A program made the position numbers and the translations under genes. Below are positions 1,059-28,470 of a DNA stretch of 32,000 bases, in pieces (position 1 is the stretch's first letter; the number at the start of each line of letters is the position of its first letter). Source of the DNA: Nitrosopumilaceae archaeon (GTDB lineage: Archaea; Thermoproteota; Nitrososphaeria; Nitrososphaerales; Nitrosopumilaceae); NCBI GenBank assembly GCA_965208905.1, contig OZ242365.1, positions 230,618 to 262,617 on the forward strand, read 5' to 3'. Under the pieces are notes generated by a model. It made no database searches. It was not told where the DNA came from and saw only the letters and a program-made list of their open reading frames with translations.

Positions 1059-1221
1059 GCATTGTAGTATATGCCGAAATTGTTTAAATATTACTGAAAG
1101 TTGTTCTTGTGCAAATTCGGGCGTTATCTGGATTATGCAGTTTCAGAGCCCGTGTCTTTGACCAGGATGGCCGGATTTTGTCCGGTTGGACGATCTTGAA
1201 CAGTATCTGGCAGTGGTGGTT

Positions 1222-1458
1222 TTAGTCGTACCGCTGGTTCGCATGAAAGACGGACGATAGACGCTGTCGTCTCATCTCGCCCGGCATGTACGGCAACATG
1301 GTCACATCGTTGATGCTGCTCTGGACGATCTCTGACTCCAGTATGGTCCCCGGCCGCTCTTCTCTTGGCGCGGACACGGGTGCCCCCGCACCAAATTTGT
1401 CACGATGTAAATCATAAATGATGTCTTGTTGCTGTGTCTCAGGTGGTAGTATATCCAA
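1222..1458 (-). CDS. hypothetical small acidic protein (weak call)
   Basis: 78-aa ORF with a TTG start between the secreted-protein gene and the rhomboid gene. No recognisable motif. It sits in a locally GC-richer stretch. Confidence 0.25.
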   Translation of the reverse strand: MDILPPETQQQDIIYDLHRDKFGAGAPVSAPREERPGTILESEIVQSSINDVTMLPYMPGEMRRQRLSSVFHANQRYD

Positions 1459-1514
1459 TAGTCCGGTCGTCTATTCATTGCCGAGTGTGGGGGATCAGCG
1501 ATCAAAAGATACAT

Positions 1515-2732
1515 CTACTCGGGGATGACAACTATGATGCCCAACTCGATCATGTATGAGATGGACTTTAGAAATTCATCATCAGAGATTGTACCGTCCG
1601 CATACCATAGGGCCAGTGGGACCAACCAGCGGGGTAGGTAGGGCTCACCTTTGTATCCAGTAGAGATCATATCAAGATCAGACAGTAGAAAGAGATCATC
1701 TAATATATCATCTTTAGACTCATCCAAAGCCCACTGCTCTGCATCATATCTTAGATATTCAGGTACAAGTGGTTCTAGTGTAGGGCCAGGAACGAACCCC
1801 CGTATAGTTATGACATCTTGAGATAGTTTTCGTATATCAAAAGCCAGATGCCACATCCCCAGCTCATCCACACTCTGTACAAAGTCTATCTCTGCTCCGT
1901 TTCTATACACCTGAAAAGTCTCCTGTCTAGTCACTGGAGGTATCTCAATGTTGGCAAATGTCTCAAACGTATAGCTGTTAGTAGTCTGTAATGTCAGTGT
2001 GGTGCCGTTCTCGGTAAATTCAGGCCTGTAAATCCATGCGCCAGACTCGTATCGAAGATTGTACGTCATATCGCCTCGCTGAGCCTTTATTGGGTATGTG
2101 GAGCGAGAGCTGGGAGCAAAGCAGCTATAATATGTTACATCATCAGATACAGCAGGGTCTGGATGCATTACAAATCTTCCCATTTGGCCTGGGTCTAATG
2201 GTCCTATCTCATGTAGACTCTGAGAGACATCCAAGGCTCCATCCATACCATGAACAACAGCCCATATTGTAATGTCTTGTACTGTGTAATTACCATCATT
2301 GATTACAAATCCAGAGAGGGTCCCATTTGTGTGCAGTACAAGTGTCTCATCATATATGACTGATACCCGGGGTGCATAGCCAGTAGTGTTATAATATTCA
2401 ACTTGTGGGTCCAACAGTACCAAATTATCATATGGTTGAGGTATCTGTGGCATCTTTACCTTGAATGGCAACTCGGAATTGGCAGGCAAAAAGTCATGGC
2501 GTATGGTGACTGTATATATGATATCACCATCAGTTGCTGAAATTGTAACGGTTGTGGATATGTCTACAGGTTCCGTATTCTTGACATTTCCAATTATGGT
2601 GTACATGCCGTTGGTATCTACATACGAAAGATATTCGTTGTTCGGGACATAGACTTCGGCTGTGGCACTCAGTGTACCCACAAGTATTATCATACATGAT
2701 AGTGGAACAGTTGTATATCTAGTCAAGATCAA
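1515..2732 (-). CDS. secreted/surface protein with one C-terminal W-rich ~38-aa module
   Basis: 405 aa with an N-terminal hydrophobic signal-like segment (CMIILVGTLSATA/EVY). The C-terminus LPRWLVPLALWYADGTISDDEFLKSISYMIELGIIVV matches the module repeated in the upstream gene. The TTG start overlaps the upstream stop by 14 nt. Confidence 0.75.
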   Translation of the reverse strand: MILTRYTTVPLSCMIILVGTLSATAEVYVPNNEYLSYVDTNGMYTIIGNVKNTEPVDISTTVTISATDGDIIYTVTIRHDFLPANSELPFKVKMPQIPQPYDNLVLLDPQVEYYNTTGYAPRVSVIYDETLVLHTNGTLSGFVINDGNYTVQDITIWAVVHGMDGALDVSQSLHEIGPLDPGQMGRFVMHPDPAVSDDVTYYSCFAPSSRSTYPIKAQRGDMTYNLRYESGAWIYRPEFTENGTTLTLQTTNSYTFETFANIEIPPVTRQETFQVYRNGAEIDFVQSVDELGMWHLAFDIRKLSQDVITIRGFVPGPTLEPLVPEYLRYDAEQWALDESKDDILDDLFLLSDLDMISTGYKGEPYLPRWLVPLALWYADGTISDDEFLKSISYMIELGIIVVIPE

Positions 2733-4248
2733 CAGGTATCACGCCCTTCTCCACCAAAAACGCAACACTGGCCAAAAACTCGGCATCGCTGACCAGTCCA
2801 TCTACCCACCATTGAGCCGTGCTTCGGACCCATGACTCTATATCACCGCCTGTATCAGATGAGACCGCATCAACCTGTATTACATCATTCTTAATTAAAA
2901 AGGCCATAGCCTGTACAAACGAATCATCATCTATATCACCTTCTGCCCACCACTGAACTGTATTACGGATCCAATCTGGTATCAAATCCATATTACCATT
3001 TGATGCGGTATTGAATACTATTGGTAGTGCTGCTGCCGCCAACTCGTTATCATCCACATTACTAAACTGTAAGAGGGCAGGTCCCTGTATATCCGAGGGC
3101 ACATCAAATACAATACTTACAGGTTTATTCTCATCGGATACGCCACTCCCCGAGTACAGTATAACATCATCATCATATACTACTTGTACATCGTATGGTA
3201 CTGATACCACCAAGCTGCTGGGAAAGACGTGTGTTATGTTAAATGATGCTGTGTTTGATTGTCCCGATACAGGTCCGTCCGGTTCTAAATCGATTAGTAT
3301 GCGGTACTGGCCATTGGTGGTCACCGAACTGTACACAGAGTCCAAAGACGGTTTGGCAGTGACTCTCATTACATCGATATCATCGGTCTGCTCGTATAAT
3401 CTAAACAGTTCACCCTGAGGTAGTACTAAATGCACTATCCTATAGTCCAAAAAGTAGTCATCTATAGTCACTATTCTAGGAGGCAAGTCAAGTCCGTTTA
3501 TTTGAACATCAAAATCAGAGACCAAAAGTTCCCCAAAGGTTATGGGCACAGCAAACTCTACATGTACCACATCTATCTGATTTAATATATCCTCATCCCA
3601 TTCAAAGGGCATCTCAAATGAGACGGTTCGCTGTGTGTCATCATATCTTATGTTATGTAATACATCATAGTACGTGACAAATCTCATGGTTTGTTCATTC
3701 CAGTATTGATCGTCTATCGTATGAAGAAACGTCATGGGTACAGTGACGGCGGAGTTAAACTGTAATGGTTCAGGTGGCGCATATCCCTGAGATGACAGTA
3801 TGGAGACATCCAGAGAATATAGGCCGCCATCAGCCAAAGCGGGCCCAGACATCATATACGTTACATCGCTTAAAATTCCAAAGAAGCCGCCAGAACTACG
3901 CTCATACAGTACGCCATCACCAGAGTCATCAGAGGTAAATTGTAGTTTTACGACACCATTATTTGCTTGAAACTCTTGCGCAAAGAGTTGGGTCTGTCCG
4001 CGTCGGGCATCGATGTATAATATAGTATCCCCTATAGGCTCTCTATTGTCATCGCGAATGAATGATACGGATACCAGAACTTCAGACTCTGTCTTTTCAG
4101 AGTCGACCATTACAGTGACTAGTTGATTGTTCATCAGTATGGGCGGTAACACCTCAGTACCAGTACCGTGTCCATGCGCCATAAAGTTTGGTGTCATAAT
4201 GACGCATAATGCCATTATCATACATGGTATCCATATAGTCTTACACAT
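2719..4248 (-). CDS. secreted/surface protein with two C-terminal W-rich ~38-aa modules
   Basis: The ORF is open to 4314 (TTG). Met at 4248 gives a signal-like MCKTIWIPCMIMALCVIMTPNFMA followed by HGHGTG. The two C-terminal modules are IPDWIRNTVQWWAEGDIDDDSFVQAMAFLIKNDVIQVD and IESWVRSTAQWWVDGLVSDAEFLASVAFLVEKGVIPVD. Confidence 0.75.
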   Translation of the reverse strand: MCKTIWIPCMIMALCVIMTPNFMAHGHGTGTEVLPPILMNNQLVTVMVDSEKTESEVLVSVSFIRDDNREPIGDTILYIDARRGQTQLFAQEFQANNGVVKLQFTSDDSGDGVLYERSSGGFFGILSDVTYMMSGPALADGGLYSLDVSILSSQGYAPPEPLQFNSAVTVPMTFLHTIDDQYWNEQTMRFVTYYDVLHNIRYDDTQRTVSFEMPFEWDEDILNQIDVVHVEFAVPITFGELLVSDFDVQINGLDLPPRIVTIDDYFLDYRIVHLVLPQGELFRLYEQTDDIDVMRVTAKPSLDSVYSSVTTNGQYRILIDLEPDGPVSGQSNTASFNITHVFPSSLVVSVPYDVQVVYDDDVILYSGSGVSDENKPVSIVFDVPSDIQGPALLQFSNVDDNELAAAALPIVFNTASNGNMDLIPDWIRNTVQWWAEGDIDDDSFVQAMAFLIKNDVIQVDAVSSDTGGDIESWVRSTAQWWVDGLVSDAEFLASVAFLVEKGVIPVDLD

Positions 4249-4469
4249 ACTGTATATTAACAAATCAAATGCTGATAAAAATCTCGCCATTCCCATGTCA
4301 AGGTCGTTGCGCAATGTATACGGTAAACTCCCAATTCATTGGGAAGCATCTCCCGTTGTAGGAGAGTCATACATAGAATTACTAGTAAATTTTGCCTATT
4401 TCAGGTATTAGTTCGTATTTGAGCAGGTTTGGCGCGCCCCGGGAGAACGCATTAAAATAATCAATGGTT

Positions 4470-5462
4470 TCACAGCCAATGAGGCAGTCTTAGGTATTCA
4501 TCTAGGTTCTCGCCCCGCAACACTCGAAGCAGACCCTGTGCTTGTGGGGTAGACAGGACAGGCATATCAAACTTGTTATCTATAGAGATTCGGGGACACG
4601 CCACCTGTATGAAAGCATCCACATTGTGAATATTCACGAGTCGGTCGTTGGTTATATCAGTGAGAGCAAACATCTCCACCTCTTTGCCCAACGACTCTAG
4701 TTCTTTTTTAAATTTTAGACCAACAGTTTTAGAGAGCTGCCCCTCTTTTAATCCCACAACAATACCAAATCGCTTAGCCTCGGCCGCTTTGTATATAGAC
4801 AGTGTGGCCTTCTTGCGCAACAACTCTGCAAACTCAGATATCTCCCGAACCTCATTAAAATATGGATCAAGCACATATGTGGGTTTACCAGTGGAGAGTG
4901 CAACGCCAGCGGCATGAAAGTTGCTCTGTCCCAGAAATAGATACGAATCCACATCATTACAAAGTGATGTGGCAGGATAAAATTCACATCCAAATACTTG
5001 TCCATCATTTAATTGCCCCTTGCCAGCGCCGATAACTGTCTTTATGCCGTGTTTTTGGAGAATTTCTACAACCTTCTGTATTTGGTGCAAATGTTGACTG
5101 TCAGTCACCACTGCTACAGTACCTGATTTTAAGAGTTGGGCGCATTTCACTGCCACCGAGTCAAACGAGACATCATCAAAAGCATCTACCATTACGGTAT
5201 TCCCAATAGTATCCATGGATATGGTGTGTCCTATGTTAAAGTGAATACCAGTTCCCAAAGTGCGAGCACTACTCTCATTAATATCACAGCTGCCCCAGGT
5301 GGTATCAGCTATGACAAATGCAGGTATTCCAAACTTTTTGGTTATGTTTATTGCAGTCTTTTGTACCTGCGCAAGAATACCTTCAGGTCCGTTCAACGAT
5401 ACCGATTGGGGTCTTTTAGTGGATATTTCACGAAATATGTGCTCCTCATCGATGACTATCAT
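4470..5462 (-). CDS. dph2: diphthamide synthase subunit Dph2 (2-(3-amino-3-carboxypropyl)histidine synthase)
   Basis: 330 aa, typical archaeal Dph2 size and layout. The three conserved Cys contexts are present (WGSCD, GCEF, QVACPR). Confidence 0.85.
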   Translation of the reverse strand: MIVIDEEHIFREISTKRPQSVSLNGPEGILAQVQKTAINITKKFGIPAFVIADTTWGSCDINESSARTLGTGIHFNIGHTISMDTIGNTVMVDAFDDVSFDSVAVKCAQLLKSGTVAVVTDSQHLHQIQKVVEILQKHGIKTVIGAGKGQLNDGQVFGCEFYPATSLCNDVDSYLFLGQSNFHAAGVALSTGKPTYVLDPYFNEVREISEFAELLRKKATLSIYKAAEAKRFGIVVGLKEGQLSKTVGLKFKKELESLGKEVEMFALTDITNDRLVNIHNVDAFIQVACPRISIDNKFDMPVLSTPQAQGLLRVLRGENLDEYLRLPHWL

Positions 5463-5536
5463 GTAGACACCAATGTTGATTTTTAATTTAAACTAAGGGT
5501 TGAGGACATTAGAATTATACACTAAAGTTCACAGAA

Positions 5537-5700
5537 CTACTTGTCTAGTTGTTTGATCATTAGTGACCGCCATGTGTAGCTGAACGTCTCGGTTAGAACT
5601 AAGCTGTTATAATGCCAAACTTCATCCTCAAAACTCCTATGAAACCGCTCCAACTTGCCATTGGTTTGTGAGTGGCGTGGTCTTGAGTTTATCAGTCCCA
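5537..5700 (-). pseudogene. C-terminal fragment of an rve-type (DDE integrase-core) transposase
   Basis: The minus-strand translation reads GLINSRPRHSQTNGKLERFHRSFEDEVWHYNSL... then stop. RP.H.QTNGK.ERFH is the conserved distal motif of rve/IS481-IS3-like transposases. Stops lie just upstream, so only about 50 aa remain. Confidence 0.55.
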
Positions 5701-8928: not shown

Positions 8929-8936
8929 CATTATCA
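8929..8936. repeat. flanking direct repeat (putative TSD), left copy, element 1
   Basis: CATTATCA directly abuts the left TIR. An identical 8-mer abuts the right TIR. Confidence 0.8.
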
Positions 8937-8961
8937 GGTTCCTCCCGCAAAGTCGGGTGAT
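8937..8961. repeat. left terminal inverted repeat of element 1
   Basis: GGTTCCTCCCGCAAAGTCGGGTGAT, 25/25 reverse-complementary to 10528-10552. Confidence 0.95.
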
Positions 8962-8984
8962 GGTTGATGTGTTGTTGGATAGTG

Positions 8985-8992
8985 TTAAATAC
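8985..8992 (+). promoter_or_regulatory. TATA-like box TTAAATAC upstream of tnpB-1
   Basis: An AT-rich octamer lies 18 nt before ATG 9011. The same octamer lies 20 nt before the ATG of tnpB-2. Confidence 0.4.
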
Positions 8993-9010
8993 GTTATTAA
9001 ACCGTACTAT

Positions 9011-10528
9011 ATGATGGCTCTTGTAAAAAATAGTAGGGCAATAACACGTACATACACAAAAAATTTGGGTATGCAGTACGTGTTTGAGCATGTCAGGAAG
9101 GTGGCAGAAGTGGCGTACATTATAGCAGATAACACGGGGAAGAATACCTATGGTGTTAACGCATTGATGTATCGTACAATGCGCGGCCCTGACCCCAAAG
9201 TACATTCGTCCATAACGCAGACCGCCATACGGGACGGGGTTGCCGCCCATAACACGTACAATACAAAGACTGCGCAGGGCATGAAGGTATCTGAGCCCGT
9301 GTTTCGCAATCCGGTTGTAAAGTTGAAAAACCAAAATTGGAGGCTGAATCCGATAGCGGGTGGATATATGACTATTGCAAATGTTGGCTCATCAAAACAC
9401 CCACATATGATAGCAATTCCCATCTCTTCAGATGTGGTACGCCGCATAGGACAAAATGAGTTGGGCGAGTTGTGGATCACGCCGACCACATACACCATAA
9501 CGTATTACAACAAAGTGCCCGAGGTTGACAAGCCCCACCCATACGGCAAGTCAGAGATTATCGAGTTGCTTACGGATGTGGGGTATGTGGGCGGCACACC
9601 AAAGGATGTAATTGGCGTAGATATCAATGAGAAGAACATCACCGTAGGAGATAAAGATACAATGGTACAGTTTGATCTATCCGATACGATACAGGCCATT
9701 GAAGACGCAAAGACTGAGGATGCAAACAATACGTATACACGTACACATGATAATGCTGTATATGCGGCACGTACCGGAAGGCGTGTTGTATACAAGAAAG
9801 AGGAGGAGCGCAGAGAAAAACAACAAGTTGTGTGTGGCGGTCCCAAGTTACACAGCAAACTCAAACGCAGATACAGAAAACTCAAGAGGGAGGGCAAACA
9901 CAAGAGGGCCGCGGAGATAAAGAAGCAGATGAATAAATGCATATTAAACATACAGCATAACCACACAAAGTCAAAGAAGAATGCTAAAAAGCGCAAGGTG
10001 GCCAAAGCCGTGCGCCATCATGAACATGTGCTGAATGTGATGGCACTATGCATCGCACAGTGGGCCGCACAGTCTGGGTGTTTGGTGGTGTTGGAGGATT
10101 TAACCCGCATATCGTATAATTGGCAGAAGGGTGGAAGGTTTGGACGTATGATGCGTCGCAGGTTATATTCTGCCATGATGCGAAAGGCATCGGATTTAAT
10201 TTATGAAAAGTCCCGGTTTTTGGGAGTGGAGGCATTACATATGCGTCCACACAACACATCCAAGCTATGTGCTGCGTGCAGAACCATACTAACTGGAACT
10301 TATCATAGAAAAGACTGCACCCGCTGCCATATAGTTGGCGTAGATCGTGACGTCAACGCAGTGGAGAATATACGGCGAACAAGTGCCGTATCCCGATATG
10401 GTCGTCAGGTTTCGGCCAGTCTGGGCGAAGTCCGTCGTGGTGTGGATGTAATCCTCGATCCCACACCACTCATACAGGGTTGCTGGAGCAACTGGGCTGA
10501 CAGACTATCCCGCATAGCGGGGGTGTAA
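9011..10528 (+). CDS. tnpB: TnpB (RuvC-like RNA-guided endonuclease family, OrfB/IS1341-type)
   Basis: RuvC motifs are GVDINEKN (D), VVLEDL (E) and VDRDVNAVENI (D). The zinc finger is CAACRT...CTRCH. The ORF is open from GTG 8957/ATG 8960 inside the left TIR. ATG 9011 is preferred because of the upstream TATA-like box and the N-terminus MMALVKNSRAITRTYTK. Confidence 0.9.
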   Translation: MMALVKNSRAITRTYTKNLGMQYVFEHVRKVAEVAYIIADNTGKNTYGVNALMYRTMRGPDPKVHSSITQTAIRDGVAAHNTYNTKTAQGMKVSEPVFRNPVVKLKNQNWRLNPIAGGYMTIANVGSSKHPHMIAIPISSDVVRRIGQNELGELWITPTTYTITYYNKVPEVDKPHPYGKSEIIELLTDVGYVGGTPKDVIGVDINEKNITVGDKDTMVQFDLSDTIQAIEDAKTEDANNTYTRTHDNAVYAARTGRRVVYKKEEERREKQQVVCGGPKLHSKLKRRYRKLKREGKHKRAAEIKKQMNKCILNIQHNHTKSKKNAKKRKVAKAVRHHEHVLNVMALCIAQWAAQSGCLVVLEDLTRISYNWQKGGRFGRMMRRRLYSAMMRKASDLIYEKSRFLGVEALHMRPHNTSKLCAACRTILTGTYHRKDCTRCHIVGVDRDVNAVENIRRTSAVSRYGRQVSASLGEVRRGVDVILDPTPLIQGCWSNWADRLSRIAGV

Positions 10529-10552
10529 TCACCCGACTTTGCGGGAGGAACC
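10360..10552 (+). ncRNA. putative omega-RNA (reRNA) scaffold region of element 1 (boundaries approximate)
   Basis: By analogy with characterised TnpB loci, the guide RNA scaffold overlaps the 3' end of tnpB and the right end. This segment is clearly GC-richer (36/60 in block 10381-10440) than the 5' part of the element (21/60 in block 9001-9060). Confidence 0.3.
10528..10552. repeat. right terminal inverted repeat of element 1
   Basis: ATCACCCGACTTTGCGGGAGGAACC, 25/25 reverse-complementary to 8937-8961. Confidence 0.95.
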
Positions 10553-10560
10553 CATTATCA
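10553..10560. repeat. flanking direct repeat (putative TSD), right copy, element 1
   Basis: CATTATCA directly abuts the right TIR. Confidence 0.8.
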
Positions 10561-15319: not shown

Positions 15320-15895
15320 ATGCGCACTCCCCTAGGACACATCTTTGTATATGAAGACAGGTATATAATTCCCCCATACACCACATGTACAGTGTATATT
15401 GTATCTGTGTTGTTGTGTATTTGTATTATATTGGTAGCAGGAGATGCATATGCGCACTCTCTATTCAACTCTGCTGAAGAGTTCTATGGTGGATATAGGG
15501 TACAAGTAGCAACAACTCCTGAATTTCCCCAGATAGACGAGATCTCGACAATTCTAATCCGTGTGACAGACGAAGACTTTGAGGAGGTTGATAGCTTCAC
15601 CATGGGTCTGCGATTCTTTTATAATGATCTACAAGTAGATGCTGTGCCGCCCCAGAGCCACCAGGGAGGACACTGGGATATCGACTACATCTGGAAGAAA
15701 GAGGGAAATCACATAGTGATGGTGGATATGTATAGTGTGAATGGAGATAGCACAGACATATTGACATATACGTTCAACATGGGAACTCAGAGTCCGTTTG
15801 GATATATCTTCATATCCGCCATAACCGTGGGCGCCCTTACATTTACAGGAATAATGACATACATCTATCTTCCAAAGATACTGCGGCGCCGTTGA
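15320..15895 (+). CDS. membrane-anchored extracytoplasmic protein, predicted mature N-terminal His (possible metal-handling Ig-like protein)
   Basis: Signal-like VSVLLCICIILVAGDAYA/HSLF is followed by a beta-rich ~130 aa domain. The C-terminal TM is FGYIFISAITVGALTFTGIMTYIYL, followed by basic residues. It lies next to the oxidase/heme A synthase operon. Confidence 0.6.
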   Translation: MRTPLGHIFVYEDRYIIPPYTTCTVYIVSVLLCICIILVAGDAYAHSLFNSAEEFYGGYRVQVATTPEFPQIDEISTILIRVTDEDFEEVDSFTMGLRFFYNDLQVDAVPPQSHQGGHWDIDYIWKKEGNHIVMVDMYSVNGDSTDILTYTFNMGTQSPFGYIFISAITVGALTFTGIMTYIYLPKILRRR

Positions 15896-19979: not shown

Positions 19980-19987
19980 CTTAGTCA
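19980..19987. repeat. flanking direct repeat (putative TSD), left copy, element 2
   Basis: CTTAGTCA abuts the left TIR. It matches 21459-21466 at 7 of 8 positions. Confidence 0.65.
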
Positions 19988-20015
19988 TGGGCTGTGACGT
20001 TATCTGCGCGTGTCC
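19988..20015. repeat. left terminal inverted repeat of element 2
   Basis: TGGGCTGTGACGTTATCTGCGCGTGTCC, 28/28 reverse-complementary to 21431-21458. Confidence 0.95.
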
Positions 20016-20077
20016 CAAGACAGCGCGTTTGACAACCCGTCGTATAGTTGAGTAGACAAATCTCCTGAATACACCGC

Positions 20078-20085
20078 TTAAATAC
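20078..20085 (+). promoter_or_regulatory. TATA-like box TTAAATAC upstream of tnpB-2
   Basis: Lies 20 nt before ATG 20106. It is the same octamer as upstream of tnpB-1. Confidence 0.4.
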
Positions 20086-20105
20086 CACCGAACTCATTGT
20101 ATAAT

Positions 20106-21404
20106 ATGAAGTACAAAGACGAAAAGTACGTCATAAAGACTCTACAGTACCGTCTTAAGATATCCACCAGACTCACTCGATACTTTAACTCAATGTATTC
20201 GGAATCCCACATATGGCTCAATGCAGGAATAAGGGCGCGTAAGGCTGGACTGACGGTGTTTGACACCAATAAGATAGCCACTATATGCCAGACCATCCCC
20301 CAGGCCTGGGTTCGCGGCGCCATACGTGAAGGCCACAAGATAGAAGGCTGTACGCATGTAAGATATGGTAGGAAGGTTTACCCCCTGTTTAGTAACGTGC
20401 CACTCGGTAAAAAATCCAAAGGTACAACGGTGTATTTCCCAAGATGTAATATACCATTCAAACTACAGAAAGGGCATCTACCCAATACATCCCAATCATA
20501 TAAGATAGTGGATGTCACGAACACTACAGACAAGGAGAGGCAGTTCGAACTACATGTAACTATACGTGAGCATGTCCCGGACCGCGTAGCGACGGGTGTA
20601 CATGCTGGTATTGATATGGGTGGTAAGCACACGCTTGTTGTTGGAAAGTCCGATGGTAGTATTGCCATGCTGACATTACGTGAGAAGGATACTATACGGA
20701 ACATAGCGCGTATGCAAAAGAAGATGAGTAGGTGCAAACTTCACTCCCGCAAGTGGCGCAACCTGCATGATACATTAAACAGCATATACCGTAAGTTGGG
20801 AAATAGACAGAAAGACAAGCTGCGCAAGTTCTCAAAGAAACTAATGCGGCAGTGTGATAGAATAATCATGGAGGGGATGAACCTCCGTACAATGACGACC
20901 AAGGGTCCCGGGCAGACGCCCAAAAATCGTACGATGCGACAAAGTCATTGTGGTGAGGCGCGGGAGCACATTTCACAACAATACCTACGATATAATGTAG
21001 AATATACGGAGATAAACCCAAAGAATACCTCAAAGCAGTGCTGTATGTGCGGTAGTTTGAATACGTGGCGCAAGAGCAGTAAGTTTAGGTGTCATAACTG
21101 CGGTATAGTGTGTCATGCGGACATCAATGCGGCATTCAACATACTTTTCGCTTTTCGTATTATACAGTGGAGTAAGCGCGCTCAGGGCGTTTATTCCCTA
21201 CAAAACAAGGCTGGAATGGTCTTGAGAGGAAAGATACATCTCGCGACACTTACTATACCCAGTGTCGTTGGTGATGTGATGGCCGGTACAGGCTGTCACC
21301 AGGCTAGGCGTCAAAACCCGGCTGACAATGAACGTCTCTTGGAAACTCCTCTGGATGGTAATTTGCCAACATTTGTTGTACTGGGCGCAGGCCCAACTGT
21401 ATAG
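20106..21404 (+). CDS. tnpB: TnpB (RuvC-like RNA-guided endonuclease family), second lineage
   Basis: RuvC motifs are GIDMGGKH (D), IIMEGMNL (E) and HADINAAFNI (D). The zinc finger is CCMCGS...CHNCG. The ORF track start 20097 is TTG; the first ATG is at 20106. Confidence 0.9.
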   Translation: MKYKDEKYVIKTLQYRLKISTRLTRYFNSMYSESHIWLNAGIRARKAGLTVFDTNKIATICQTIPQAWVRGAIREGHKIEGCTHVRYGRKVYPLFSNVPLGKKSKGTTVYFPRCNIPFKLQKGHLPNTSQSYKIVDVTNTTDKERQFELHVTIREHVPDRVATGVHAGIDMGGKHTLVVGKSDGSIAMLTLREKDTIRNIARMQKKMSRCKLHSRKWRNLHDTLNSIYRKLGNRQKDKLRKFSKKLMRQCDRIIMEGMNLRTMTTKGPGQTPKNRTMRQSHCGEAREHISQQYLRYNVEYTEINPKNTSKQCCMCGSLNTWRKSSKFRCHNCGIVCHADINAAFNILFAFRIIQWSKRAQGVYSLQNKAGMVLRGKIHLATLTIPSVVGDVMAGTGCHQARRQNPADNERLLETPLDGNLPTFVVLGAGPTV

Positions 21405-21458
21405 CAGCTGTATTGAGTACGCGCATGTATGGACACGCGCAGATAACGTCACAGCCCA
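21230..21458 (+). ncRNA. putative omega-RNA (reRNA) scaffold region of element 2 (boundaries approximate)
   Basis: A GC-richer 3' segment (33/60 and 31/60 in blocks 21241-21360) overlaps the ~90-aa post-RuvC tail of the ORF and the right end. The call is by analogy with characterised TnpB loci. Confidence 0.3.
21431..21458. repeat. right terminal inverted repeat of element 2
   Basis: GGACACGCGCAGATAACGTCACAGCCCA, 28/28 reverse-complementary to 19988-20015. Confidence 0.95.
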
Positions 21459-21466
21459 CTTGGTCA
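21459..21466. repeat. flanking direct repeat (putative TSD), right copy, element 2
   Basis: CTTGGTCA abuts the right TIR. Confidence 0.65.
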
Positions 21467-21673
21467 TATGACATGAGTCTATAAGATGCCTTGTGGCTTT
21501 GCAGTACTTTGGTGAAGTGTTATTAACTATTTTGCTTCATTGGTTGTCAAAGATGAGGTGTGCAGCCAAATGCTCTATACGTAACAGTACAACAGACAAA
21601 ATAACAGATAGTTTAGAGGATACCTTTGTACAACAAAGAGACTACATCTACAATACCAACGAGTTGCCCTAGA

Positions 21674-22513: not shown

Positions 22514-22541
22514 GACTATCCGCATAACGGGGAACCACACA

Positions 22542-28122: not shown

Positions 28123-28470
28123 GGTTCCTCCCGCAAAGTCGGGCGATTACACCCAGATAATGTGATGTCGCGCCGCAGCTTCAGTTGGCCGCTACACGCC
28201 TTGGGGCCGAGCTTTTCCAAACTGGCTACCCCTATGTTAGCCCCAGCATTACAGTCAGCGTGATCCGAGTGGCCGCACCGCTGCACCAGAGCTCCCTACC
28301 GTCCCGGTTGTCCTTGTGGATGCACCCACACGGACATCAACGCTGGCTGGTGTAAGCTACCATGACCCAAATGATACCACCGATACGCTGGTAAGATAGC
28401 AGAAGAGCCAGTAACCCCAGCATTGCTCGGGTATCTACTTGTTGAGTCCGGATTTTCGACTCAAGATTAT
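28123..28470 (-). pseudogene. decayed 3' portion of a tnpB element (third copy), retaining the element-1-type terminus
   Basis: The minus-strand translation gives ...GGIIWVMVAYTSQR*CPCGCIHKDNRDGRELW (in-frame stop). After a frameshift it reads CQRCGHSDHADCNAGANIG (RuvC-III). 28123-28154 matches the reverse complement of 10521-10552 at 31/32 positions. The 5' part and the left end are absent. Confidence 0.7.

Follow-up and report, generated by a model that had tools for sequence, protein, structure and literature searches.

A tnpB element with perfect terminal inverted repeats and an 8-bp target-site duplication in a Nitrosopumilaceae genome

We analyzed a 32,000-nucleotide stretch of contig OZ242365.1 from a Nitrosopumilaceae archaeon (hereafter, the window), which includes two mobile elements each built around a single tnpB gene. 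Our focus is the second of these, element 2, which spans 1,471 bp (window 19988–21458) in the intergenic region between a cox cluster and a methyltransferase gene. Element 2 is a real, active and well-delimited element, bounded by perfect terminal inverted repeats (TIRs) and an 8-bp target-site duplication (TSD). It is probably a non-autonomous TIR element that carries tnpB and an omegaRNA-like scaffold and is moved in trans by a DDE-type transposase. The features of element 2 are listed below in window coordinates, with the evidence in brackets (ORF, open reading frame).

19980–19987, no strand: left TSD copy, 8 bp, CTTAGTCA (the empty site at locus L016 has a single CTTGGTCA)
19988–20015, plus strand: left TIR, 28 bp, TGGGCTGTGACGTTATCTGCGCGTGTCC (100% complementary to 21431–21458; similarity to copy L015 starts exactly at 19988)
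20016–20075, plus strand: inner left end, where the inverted repeat continues in degenerate form (gapped extension to 20028, left ends of L004 and L007, reading)
20078–20084, plus strand: TTAAATA, a TATA-box-like putative archaeal promoter ~25 nt upstream of the ATG (the left-end alignment keeps CTTAAATA)
20106–21404, plus strand: tnpB, 432 amino acids, RuvC D/E/D triad and CxxC...CxxC zinc finger intact (ORF list, Pfam, NCBIfam, alignment)
21204–21389, plus strand: predicted structured RNA core, an omegaRNA-like scaffold overlapping the last ~200 nt of tnpB (covariance model, covariation)
21390–21458, plus strand: predicted terminal stem-loops of the RNA that extend into the right TIR, with a 3-nt tail (CCA) before the boundary (terminal helix in 12/12 copies)
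21431–21458, minus strand: right TIR, 28 bp (repeat finder)
21459–21466, no strand: right TSD copy, CTTGGTCA, the ancestral state (sequence reading and L016 empty site)
21459–21478, plus strand: predicted guide segment, comprising TSD and right flank (by analogy with characterised TnpB systems)

The initial annotation of this DNA had described perfect 28-bp TIRs and, directly outside them, an 8-bp direct repeat matching at 7/8 positions. Sequence reading and the repeat finder agreed that the two arms are exact (28 nt, 100% complementary, spacing 1415 nt). Perfect inverted repeats of at least 25 nt with arms less than 4 kb apart occurred only twice in the whole window, and each pair flanks one tnpB ORF; the chance expectation for one 28-mer inverted pair is ~1e-9 (~32000 x 4000 x 4^-28). 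Inward of the perfect arm, the motif TGAGTAGACAA at 20049–20059 matches the inner left TIR of two related copies, L004 and L007. The flanking octamers CTTAGTCA and CTTGGTCA are direct repeats with a 7/8 match (p ~4e-4 at a fixed position).

An uninterrupted version of the insertion site showed that this flanking repeat is a true TSD. Using a 98% identical homologue of the neighbouring methyltransferase, we reached L016, a locus of a 2.10-Mb genome with flanks 98.8–99.2% identical to the window on both sides. L016 has no element 2 in the same intergenic region and reads ...CCCGGT-CTTGGTCA-TATGACA..., with the octamer present once. The two-sided BLAST segments between window and L016 overlap by 9 nt on L016, matching the prediction for a duplication. 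Because the empty site holds one copy, the octamer duplication was created by the insertion, which disposes of the concern that the flanking similarity might belong to a pre-existing local repeat. Since the single L016 octamer is CTTGGTCA, the left octamer of the window changed from G to A after insertion. A 95% identical copy on a TARA contig (L015) has the same left end: similarity sets in precisely at TGGGCTG, and the flank beyond it is unrelated. In a third strain (L020), an N-gap falls exactly at the insertion site. We concluded that the insertion of element 2 is recent.

The element 2 TnpB has few relatives: 44 were found at E <1e-5, from ~2-Mb Nitrosopumilaceae genomes and ‘Cenarchaeum sp.’ metagenome-assembled genomes. 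The scan for relatives led to six loci in genomes and to only one distant match in metagenomes, and the phage and plasmid collections held only TnpBs less than 28% identical. An 8-bp flanking repeat was present in 11/11 related copies with readable ends, one of them being 8 or 9 bp; six of these repeats were perfect (8/8), and three copies could be set against a matching empty site or a flank that differs. The readable copies comprise three TnpB lineages in at least four Nitrosopumilaceae genomes, and their TnpBs are 34–78% identical or undetectably similar. The suggestion that such packaging is a property of a family or of the host mobilome is thus upheld by these copies. Seven of the copies are listed here with TnpB identity to element 2, terminal features and flanking repeat.

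L001: TnpB 78%; TIR 75 nt at 97% plus 49 nt at 78%, tip TGGGCTGG; TTAGATGG, 8/8
L002: TnpB 76%; TIR 51–67 nt, tip GGAACTAG; flanking repeat 6/8
L004: TnpB 71%; TIR GGGAATTATAT...TGAGTAGACA; AAAGCGAC, 8/8
L006: TnpB 65%; tip GGGAATTA; flanking repeat 7/8
L007: TnpB 69%; tip GGGAATTAT; TATAGTTA, 8/8
L012: TnpB 52%; TIR GGGAATTGTATACGAAAGTAGCGC; AAAAATTA, 8/8
L019: TnpB 34%, third lineage; TIR GGGAATTATATATTTAAGTGAACGTT; AAAATTAT, 8/8

No clean TSD was found at the ends of L003, L005 and L014, which may be old, rearranged or recombined copies. The two arms within one copy were 86–100% identical. A 12-nt tip that we call type A, GGGAATTATATA, was conserved across TnpBs that are only 34–70% identical, and further tip variants in the family were GGAACTAGTAAG, GGTTCCTCCC and TGGGCTG(T/G). 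The target of L019 is nearly palindromic (CTTG AAAATTAT TACAAG; L019 3634–3645 and 5472–5483), and the majority of the other targets are AT-rich, with octamers bordered on both sides by ATA/TAT-like bases. The preference is weak and symmetric, as is typical of DDE enzymes.

Several of these copies also speak to the timing of transposition. L004 and L007 are 97% identical and lie at separate places in the same genome. A different family member, from a third strain (L017 1–852; TnpB 35% identical to that of element 2, with a zinc-finger insertion), ends ...GTATGTAATTCCC directly at the methyltransferase start codon (AATGATAA), so that the cox–methyltransferase intergenic region has been hit repeatedly. 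The near-identical pair at different sites, the L017 member and the reciprocal insertions described below together indicate recent, ongoing transposition. As a separate observation, an insert of ~110 bp resembling a miniature inverted-repeat transposable element, with its own inverted ends TATATATACTCAGG ... CCTGAGTGTATACATA, breaks the left TIR region of L007 relative to L004 (L007 2787–2899).

The other tnpB element of the window, element 1, had been described as sharing the same architecture, and its coordinates bear this out.

8929–10560, plus strand: element 1 with its TSD, CATTATCA at 8929–8936 and 10553–10560
8937–8961 and 10528–10552: TIRs of element 1, 25 bp, perfect (repeat finder)
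8957–10528, plus strand: TnpB of element 1, 523 amino acids

The two copies of CATTATCA that flank the element proper (8937–10552) match at 8/8 positions. A 90% identical element-1-type copy lies in L016 (4852–6469), inverted, between the methyltransferase gene and a histidine-phosphatase gene, with its tnpB split into ORFs of 172 and 344 amino acids. Its empty site is window 22516–22524, and (C)TATCCGCA is duplicated in L016, the length being 8 or 9 bp according to the reading of one mutated tip base. The window strain and the L016 strain are therefore ~99% identical yet differ by reciprocal insertions of TnpB elements. Elsewhere in the window (28123–28330, minus strand) we observed a 96% copy of the element 1 terminal repeat, GGTTCCTCCCGCAAAGTCGGGCGAT, followed inward by GATTACACCC as at the right end of element 1, and an ORF fragment with a RuvC-III motif (..GHSDHADCNAGANI..). 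We found no partner for this terminal repeat, and the segment looks like a 5'-truncated element-1-type copy, a third TnpB relic.

Between the arms of element 2 the only long ORF is 20097/20106–21404, which reads as an intact TnpB. It matched Pfam OrfB_IS605 (PF01385; 44.4 bits, cut-off 30.5), Cas12f1-like_TNB (PF07282; 52.3 bits, cut-off 26.3) and NCBIfam guided_TnpB (114.4 bits, cut-off 100), and NCBIfam models for IS607/IS200 TnpB were among its best relatives. The catalytic residues are D170, the E in IIMEGMNL, and D339; the motifs GIDMGG, IIMEGMNL and HADINAAFNI are kept in 16 homologues, as is the zinc finger, and the D/E/D columns align with the ISDra2-type TnpB structures 8bf8/8exa (E 4e-12). 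The TATA-box-like motif upstream of tnpB is conserved in the left-end alignment of relatives, and TTAAATA is a putative promoter of a leaderless tnpB mRNA. Only 51 amino acids could be aligned with the element 1 TnpB, at 37% identity, so that calling the two lineages ‘unrelated’ was fair.

The 3' end of tnpB is overlapped by a predicted structured RNA of ~190 nt, supported by covariation, that extends into the right TIR. Right ends of 11 copies aligned well up to ...GCCAACAT and diverged beyond it, and RNAalifold predicted 35 pairs in them, 17 with compensatory changes. A covariance model built from a hand-curated 45-pair structure detected every right end, including three outside its training (L012, 89.7 bits; L014, 55.9 bits; L017, 46.9 bits), and matched the window at 21204–21389 with 172.9 bits. 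In the model-based alignment, 91.9% of cells were paired versus 79.7% in shuffles, and 28 pairs showed changes on both sides versus 12.7 in shuffles (0/500 reached 28; slid controls gave at most 12). Nucleotide conservation was 0.78 in the RNA core versus 0.74 in the gene body, and 0.54 in the terminal segment; because the core is barely more conserved than the gene body, the case for an RNA rests on the covariation. Rfam yielded no matching family, either at the gathering threshold or at E <=10.

Outside the core, every copy has a hairpin with GNRA-like loops. Next comes a terminal helix, with the outer part of the right TIR as its 3' arm and a tail of 3–6 nt before the boundary; this helix is kept in all 12 copies although their sequences differ. 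The helix contains G-U pairs that cannot form on the other strand, and left ends do not keep it; the terminal structure is therefore a plus-strand, RNA-like feature and differs from the symmetric DNA hairpins of IS605. On the minus strand, the covariance model also recognised the left ends of L001 and L002: in the long TIRs of these two copies, the left end repeats 67–125 nt of the 3' part of the RNA in inverted orientation. We concluded from the modelled structure that the RNA at the tnpB 3' end is an omegaRNA-like scaffold predicted to reach the right end of the element. By analogy with known systems, the element 2 TnpB and this omegaRNA would work as an RNA-guided nuclease.

We found no transposase or second gene belonging to the element in any of at least 13 copies (ORF lists and gene tables). 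One candidate was rejected. L004 contains, between its left TIR and tnpB, an ORF of 340 amino acids of the DDE_Tnp_1/IS5-like type, which lies inside the same TIRs and 8-bp TSD and was at first taken as the cognate transposase. This gene proved to be part of a nested IS5-like insertion sequence (IS), with its own ends GGGGTTGTTGCRTAATTC, TIR GGGGTTGTTGCGTAATTC and a 9-bp TSD, GACCATAAC. L007 is the same TnpB element without the IS, and the IS site is uninterrupted there; moreover, L010 and L011 contain the same IS by itself, and ~1.2-kb contigs abound in members of its protein family. Given its own ends and 9-bp TSD, the uninterrupted site and the solo copies, the DDE gene of L004 belongs to a separate IS. 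The ends of this IS do not resemble those of the TnpB elements, and the link that had been proposed between the TIRs and a resident DDE IS could not be established. L004 further shows an extra segment of ~530 bp between the left TIR and the nested IS (L004 1236–1762), one frame of which may resemble the C-terminus of an IS110-type transposase; this suggests multiple nested insertions in the L004 TnpB element.

IS6-family elements were a second possible source of the ends. This family makes 8-bp repeats, has short near-perfect TIRs with a GG tip and cTGTt and caaa motifs, and is abundant in archaea (PMC7986276). The element 2 family shares with IS6/IS26 the 8-bp direct repeats. Each TIR of the window has the GG tip and one of the two motifs but is missing the other: the element 2 TIR, (T)GGGCTGTGACG, shows GG and CTGT without caaa, whereas the element 1 TIR, GGTTCCTCCCGCAAAG, shows GG and caaa (GCAAAG) without cTGTt. 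The resemblance to IS6 ends is hence partial, and the type-A tip GGGAATTATATA has neither motif. IS6 elements are also ~0.8 kb long with their own transposase, in contrast to the 1,471 bp of element 2 with tnpB only. No IS6 transposase was seen in the fetched loci. Of two TIR-pattern scans of viral contigs, one was empty and the other gave one match without TnpB or DDE nearby, which was taken as chance.

What, then, moves element 2? Trans-mobilisation is the simplest reading because no copy encodes a transposase. A transposase encoded elsewhere would recognise the inverted ends, make 8-bp staggered cuts in the target by DDE-type chemistry, and cut and join the element. Because the scaffold is predicted to end at the right tip, the 8-bp duplication and the right flank would supply the guide. 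TnpB–omegaRNA would then serve to bias the retention or spread of the element, as happens in IS200/IS605 and IS607, and would not itself catalyse transposition. Conservation of the 12-nt type-A tip across such divergent TnpBs points to a common protein that recognises the tip. Transposition by Y1 (TnpA) and serine recombinases uses no TIRs and makes no duplications (PMC4810608; PMC3627910; PMC13565253), and both are excluded by the duplication at insertion together with the inverted ends. Trans-mobilisation has direct precedent: inverted terminal repeats occur in all six DDE-associated branches of TnpB, and the same ends are found on some solo TnpBs (PMC10691335; PMC13565253 agrees).

Several results weigh against a DDE-type transposase acting in trans. 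No partner DDE transposase with the same ends was found among ~15 loci, and a regular expression for IS6-type TIRs gave zero matches in 156 kb of sampled DNA. Several TIR tips occur within single genomes (TGGGCTG, GGAACTAG, GGGAATTATATA, GAGGTTATGCG, GGTTCCTCC), and a single trans-acting transposase does not easily fit this coexistence of differing sequences. The terminal segment is ~54% identical between copies, yet the arms of one copy agree at the 86–100% given above. The closest sister-genome copy is only ~77% identical to element 2, which probably arrived by transfer and still integrated. Finally, the left flanks of nine insertions held no conserved motif 5' of the duplication resembling a target-adjacent motif (TAM); their pentamers include CCAGT, GCATA, CATAG, CTTGT, ATACA, CTATA, CGCCG and TCTTG and are different in every copy. 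Because no TAM is conserved, a role for TnpB in homing to the donor joint is not obviously available.

We therefore considered whether the element might need no separate transposase: TnpB, possibly with the 3' part of its own RNA complementary to both ends, would cut the ends and make the 8-bp target stagger, or TnpB–omegaRNA would be replaced in this role by a host enzyme that reads only inverted symmetry. At least 13 copies without a transposase, a right TIR lying within the predicted RNA, and left ends of L001 and L002 that are inverted stretches of the RNA region are in keeping with this scheme, as are arms that co-vary in a copy and diverge freely across lineages, which guide–target matching predicts, and the apparent integration of element 2 after transfer into a genome without close copies. 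RuvC, moreover, is an RNase-H-fold D/E/D nuclease, like the DDE transposases. We know of no precedent, however, for TnpB-driven TIR/TSD transposition and of no strand-transfer activity in TnpB or Cas12. The type-A tip, kept across divergent TnpBs, looks like protein–DNA recognition by a shared factor, and the diverse target sites, AT-rich or palindromic, are as expected with DDE enzymes. TnpB is also dispensable for transposition of IS605 and IS607 (PMC3627910, PMC13565253). We regard this scheme as quite unlikely; if true, it would represent an RNA-assisted route to TIR/TSD transposition and would explain both the matched ends of each copy and the free divergence between lineages. Unlikely, too, is that a non-DDE integrase of the host mobilome, such as a Cas1-type casposase, acts on the inverted ends. 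Casposons occur in Thaumarchaeota and their TIRs vary in length and sequence, but casposase duplications are ~14–15 bp long, versus 8 bp here. The failure to find a DDE partner in ~15 loci would suit such an enzyme, whereas the gene tables listed no cas1 near any copy. TnpB–Cas1 associations flanked by repeats have been described in Asgard archaea (PMC10691335).

Two further explanations are refuted. Under one of them, to which we attach very little probability, element 2 is an ordinary IS200/IS605 element of the IS1341 group, moved by a Y1 TnpA in trans, with subterminal hairpins for TIRs and a coincidental flanking repeat. Elements of this group resemble element 2 in having a single tnpB, an omegaRNA-like RNA over its 3' end and a size of ~1.3–1.6 kb, and the IS607/IS200 TnpB models among the NCBIfam relatives and the subterminal hairpins at the right end would agree with membership. 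IS1341-group elements, however, have neither TIRs nor TSDs (PMC3627910), and element 2 has both. When the end features of the group were looked for in element 2, we found a perfect 28-bp TIR and hairpins at the right end only; the hairpin was not kept at left ends, including that of L004 when read directly. The group inserts 3' of a fixed 4–5-nt motif without a TSD, and no conserved motif of this length lies 5' of the left end. Y1 transposition proceeds without duplication and needs no inverted ends (PMC4810608, PMC3627910), whereas the L016 empty site proves the 8-bp duplication and eleven copies have one; it is this empty-site comparison that refutes the explanation. The other, that the inverted repeat and flanking similarity are meaningless products of chance or assembly, has practically no probability left: the repeat is expected by chance at only ~1e-9, the same ends stand in the independent TARA contig, L016 has the empty site, and the architecture is family-wide.

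Relative to known systems, the packaging is non-canonical for IS200/IS605 but not unprecedented, since DDE-associated and solo TnpBs with inverted repeats are on record (PMC10691335). Altae-Tran et al. (2023) defined the DDE-associated branches of TnpB as DDE-1 to DDE-6 (PMC10691335), and the partners of these TnpBs are ISL2, IS630 and IS1031 (PMC13565253). Compared by architecture, DDE-associated and solo TnpBs are like element 2 in that tnpB lies inside inverted repeats with its 3' end near one transposon end; TnpB 3' ends less than 250 bp from the transposon end are seen in the DDE-associated systems too (PMC10691335). Their solo copies without a transposase are presumed to have moved in trans, as we propose for element 2. 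The element 2 family differs from them in its 8-bp duplication, its Nitrosopumilaceae host, its heterogeneous TIRs and the lack of a partner in ~15 loci. By comparison, IS630 duplicates TA, and ISL2 and IS1031 duplicate 2–3 bp. The Fanzor1 TIR transposons (Bao & Jurka 2013, PMC3627910) likewise carry a TnpB homologue as a passenger in TIR/TSD elements, including transposase-less copies, and the IS4-type elements of Ectocarpus virus with Fanzor1 have perfect 8-bp TSDs (PMC3627910). Fanzor1 elements, however, have eukaryotic or viral hosts and encode Fanzor proteins, with no close sequence relationship to element 2 shown. The literature searched did not mention TnpB together with Nitrosopumilaceae. 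TIR packaging is thus already reported for a few TnpB lineages, and not for that of element 2.

Among the genes of the window are archaeal markers (S19e, TiaS, diphthamide synthase, the cox cluster and cupredoxins), and the host genome is that of a sponge-associated, ammonia-oxidising member of the Nitrosopumilaceae (thaumarchaeal). Two long adjacent ORFs of 405 and 531 amino acids (1515–4314, minus strand) had no match in Pfam or NCBIfam. Beside them, at 1192–1505 (minus strand), are degenerate remnants of the IS5-like DDE transposase nested in L004 (63–71% identity over 54–56 amino acids), so that this resident IS family with its 9-bp TSD has also visited the window. Solitary exact 13-nt type-A tips, GTATATAATTCCC / GGGAATTATATAC, were observed at window 15361–15373, L002 6031–6043 and L014 7014–7026, each 13–50 nt upstream of a gene start; the one in L002 forms the left end of a degenerate TnpB element in reverse orientation, of which tblastn detected a remnant at 5339–5668. 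Type-A tips hold a TATA-like TATATAA facing outward, and we speculate that retained tips might provide the neighbouring gene with a promoter.

Cas12 descends from TnpB, itself a compact nuclease for genome editing. What is understood of TnpB biology comes almost entirely from the context of TnpA (Y1 or serine), where excision is scarless and the guide is set by the right junction of the transposon. The family described here gives a clean natural system in which tnpB-only TIR units have moved recently and in which empty and filled alleles exist in 99% identical archaeal strains. It lends itself to the questions of how the guide of an omegaRNA and a TAM can be reconciled with a transposase that makes duplications, and of what enzyme mobilises ‘solo’ TnpBs. 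For annotation, gene content would file such elements under IS200/IS605, though their ends and insertion chemistry differ in kind.

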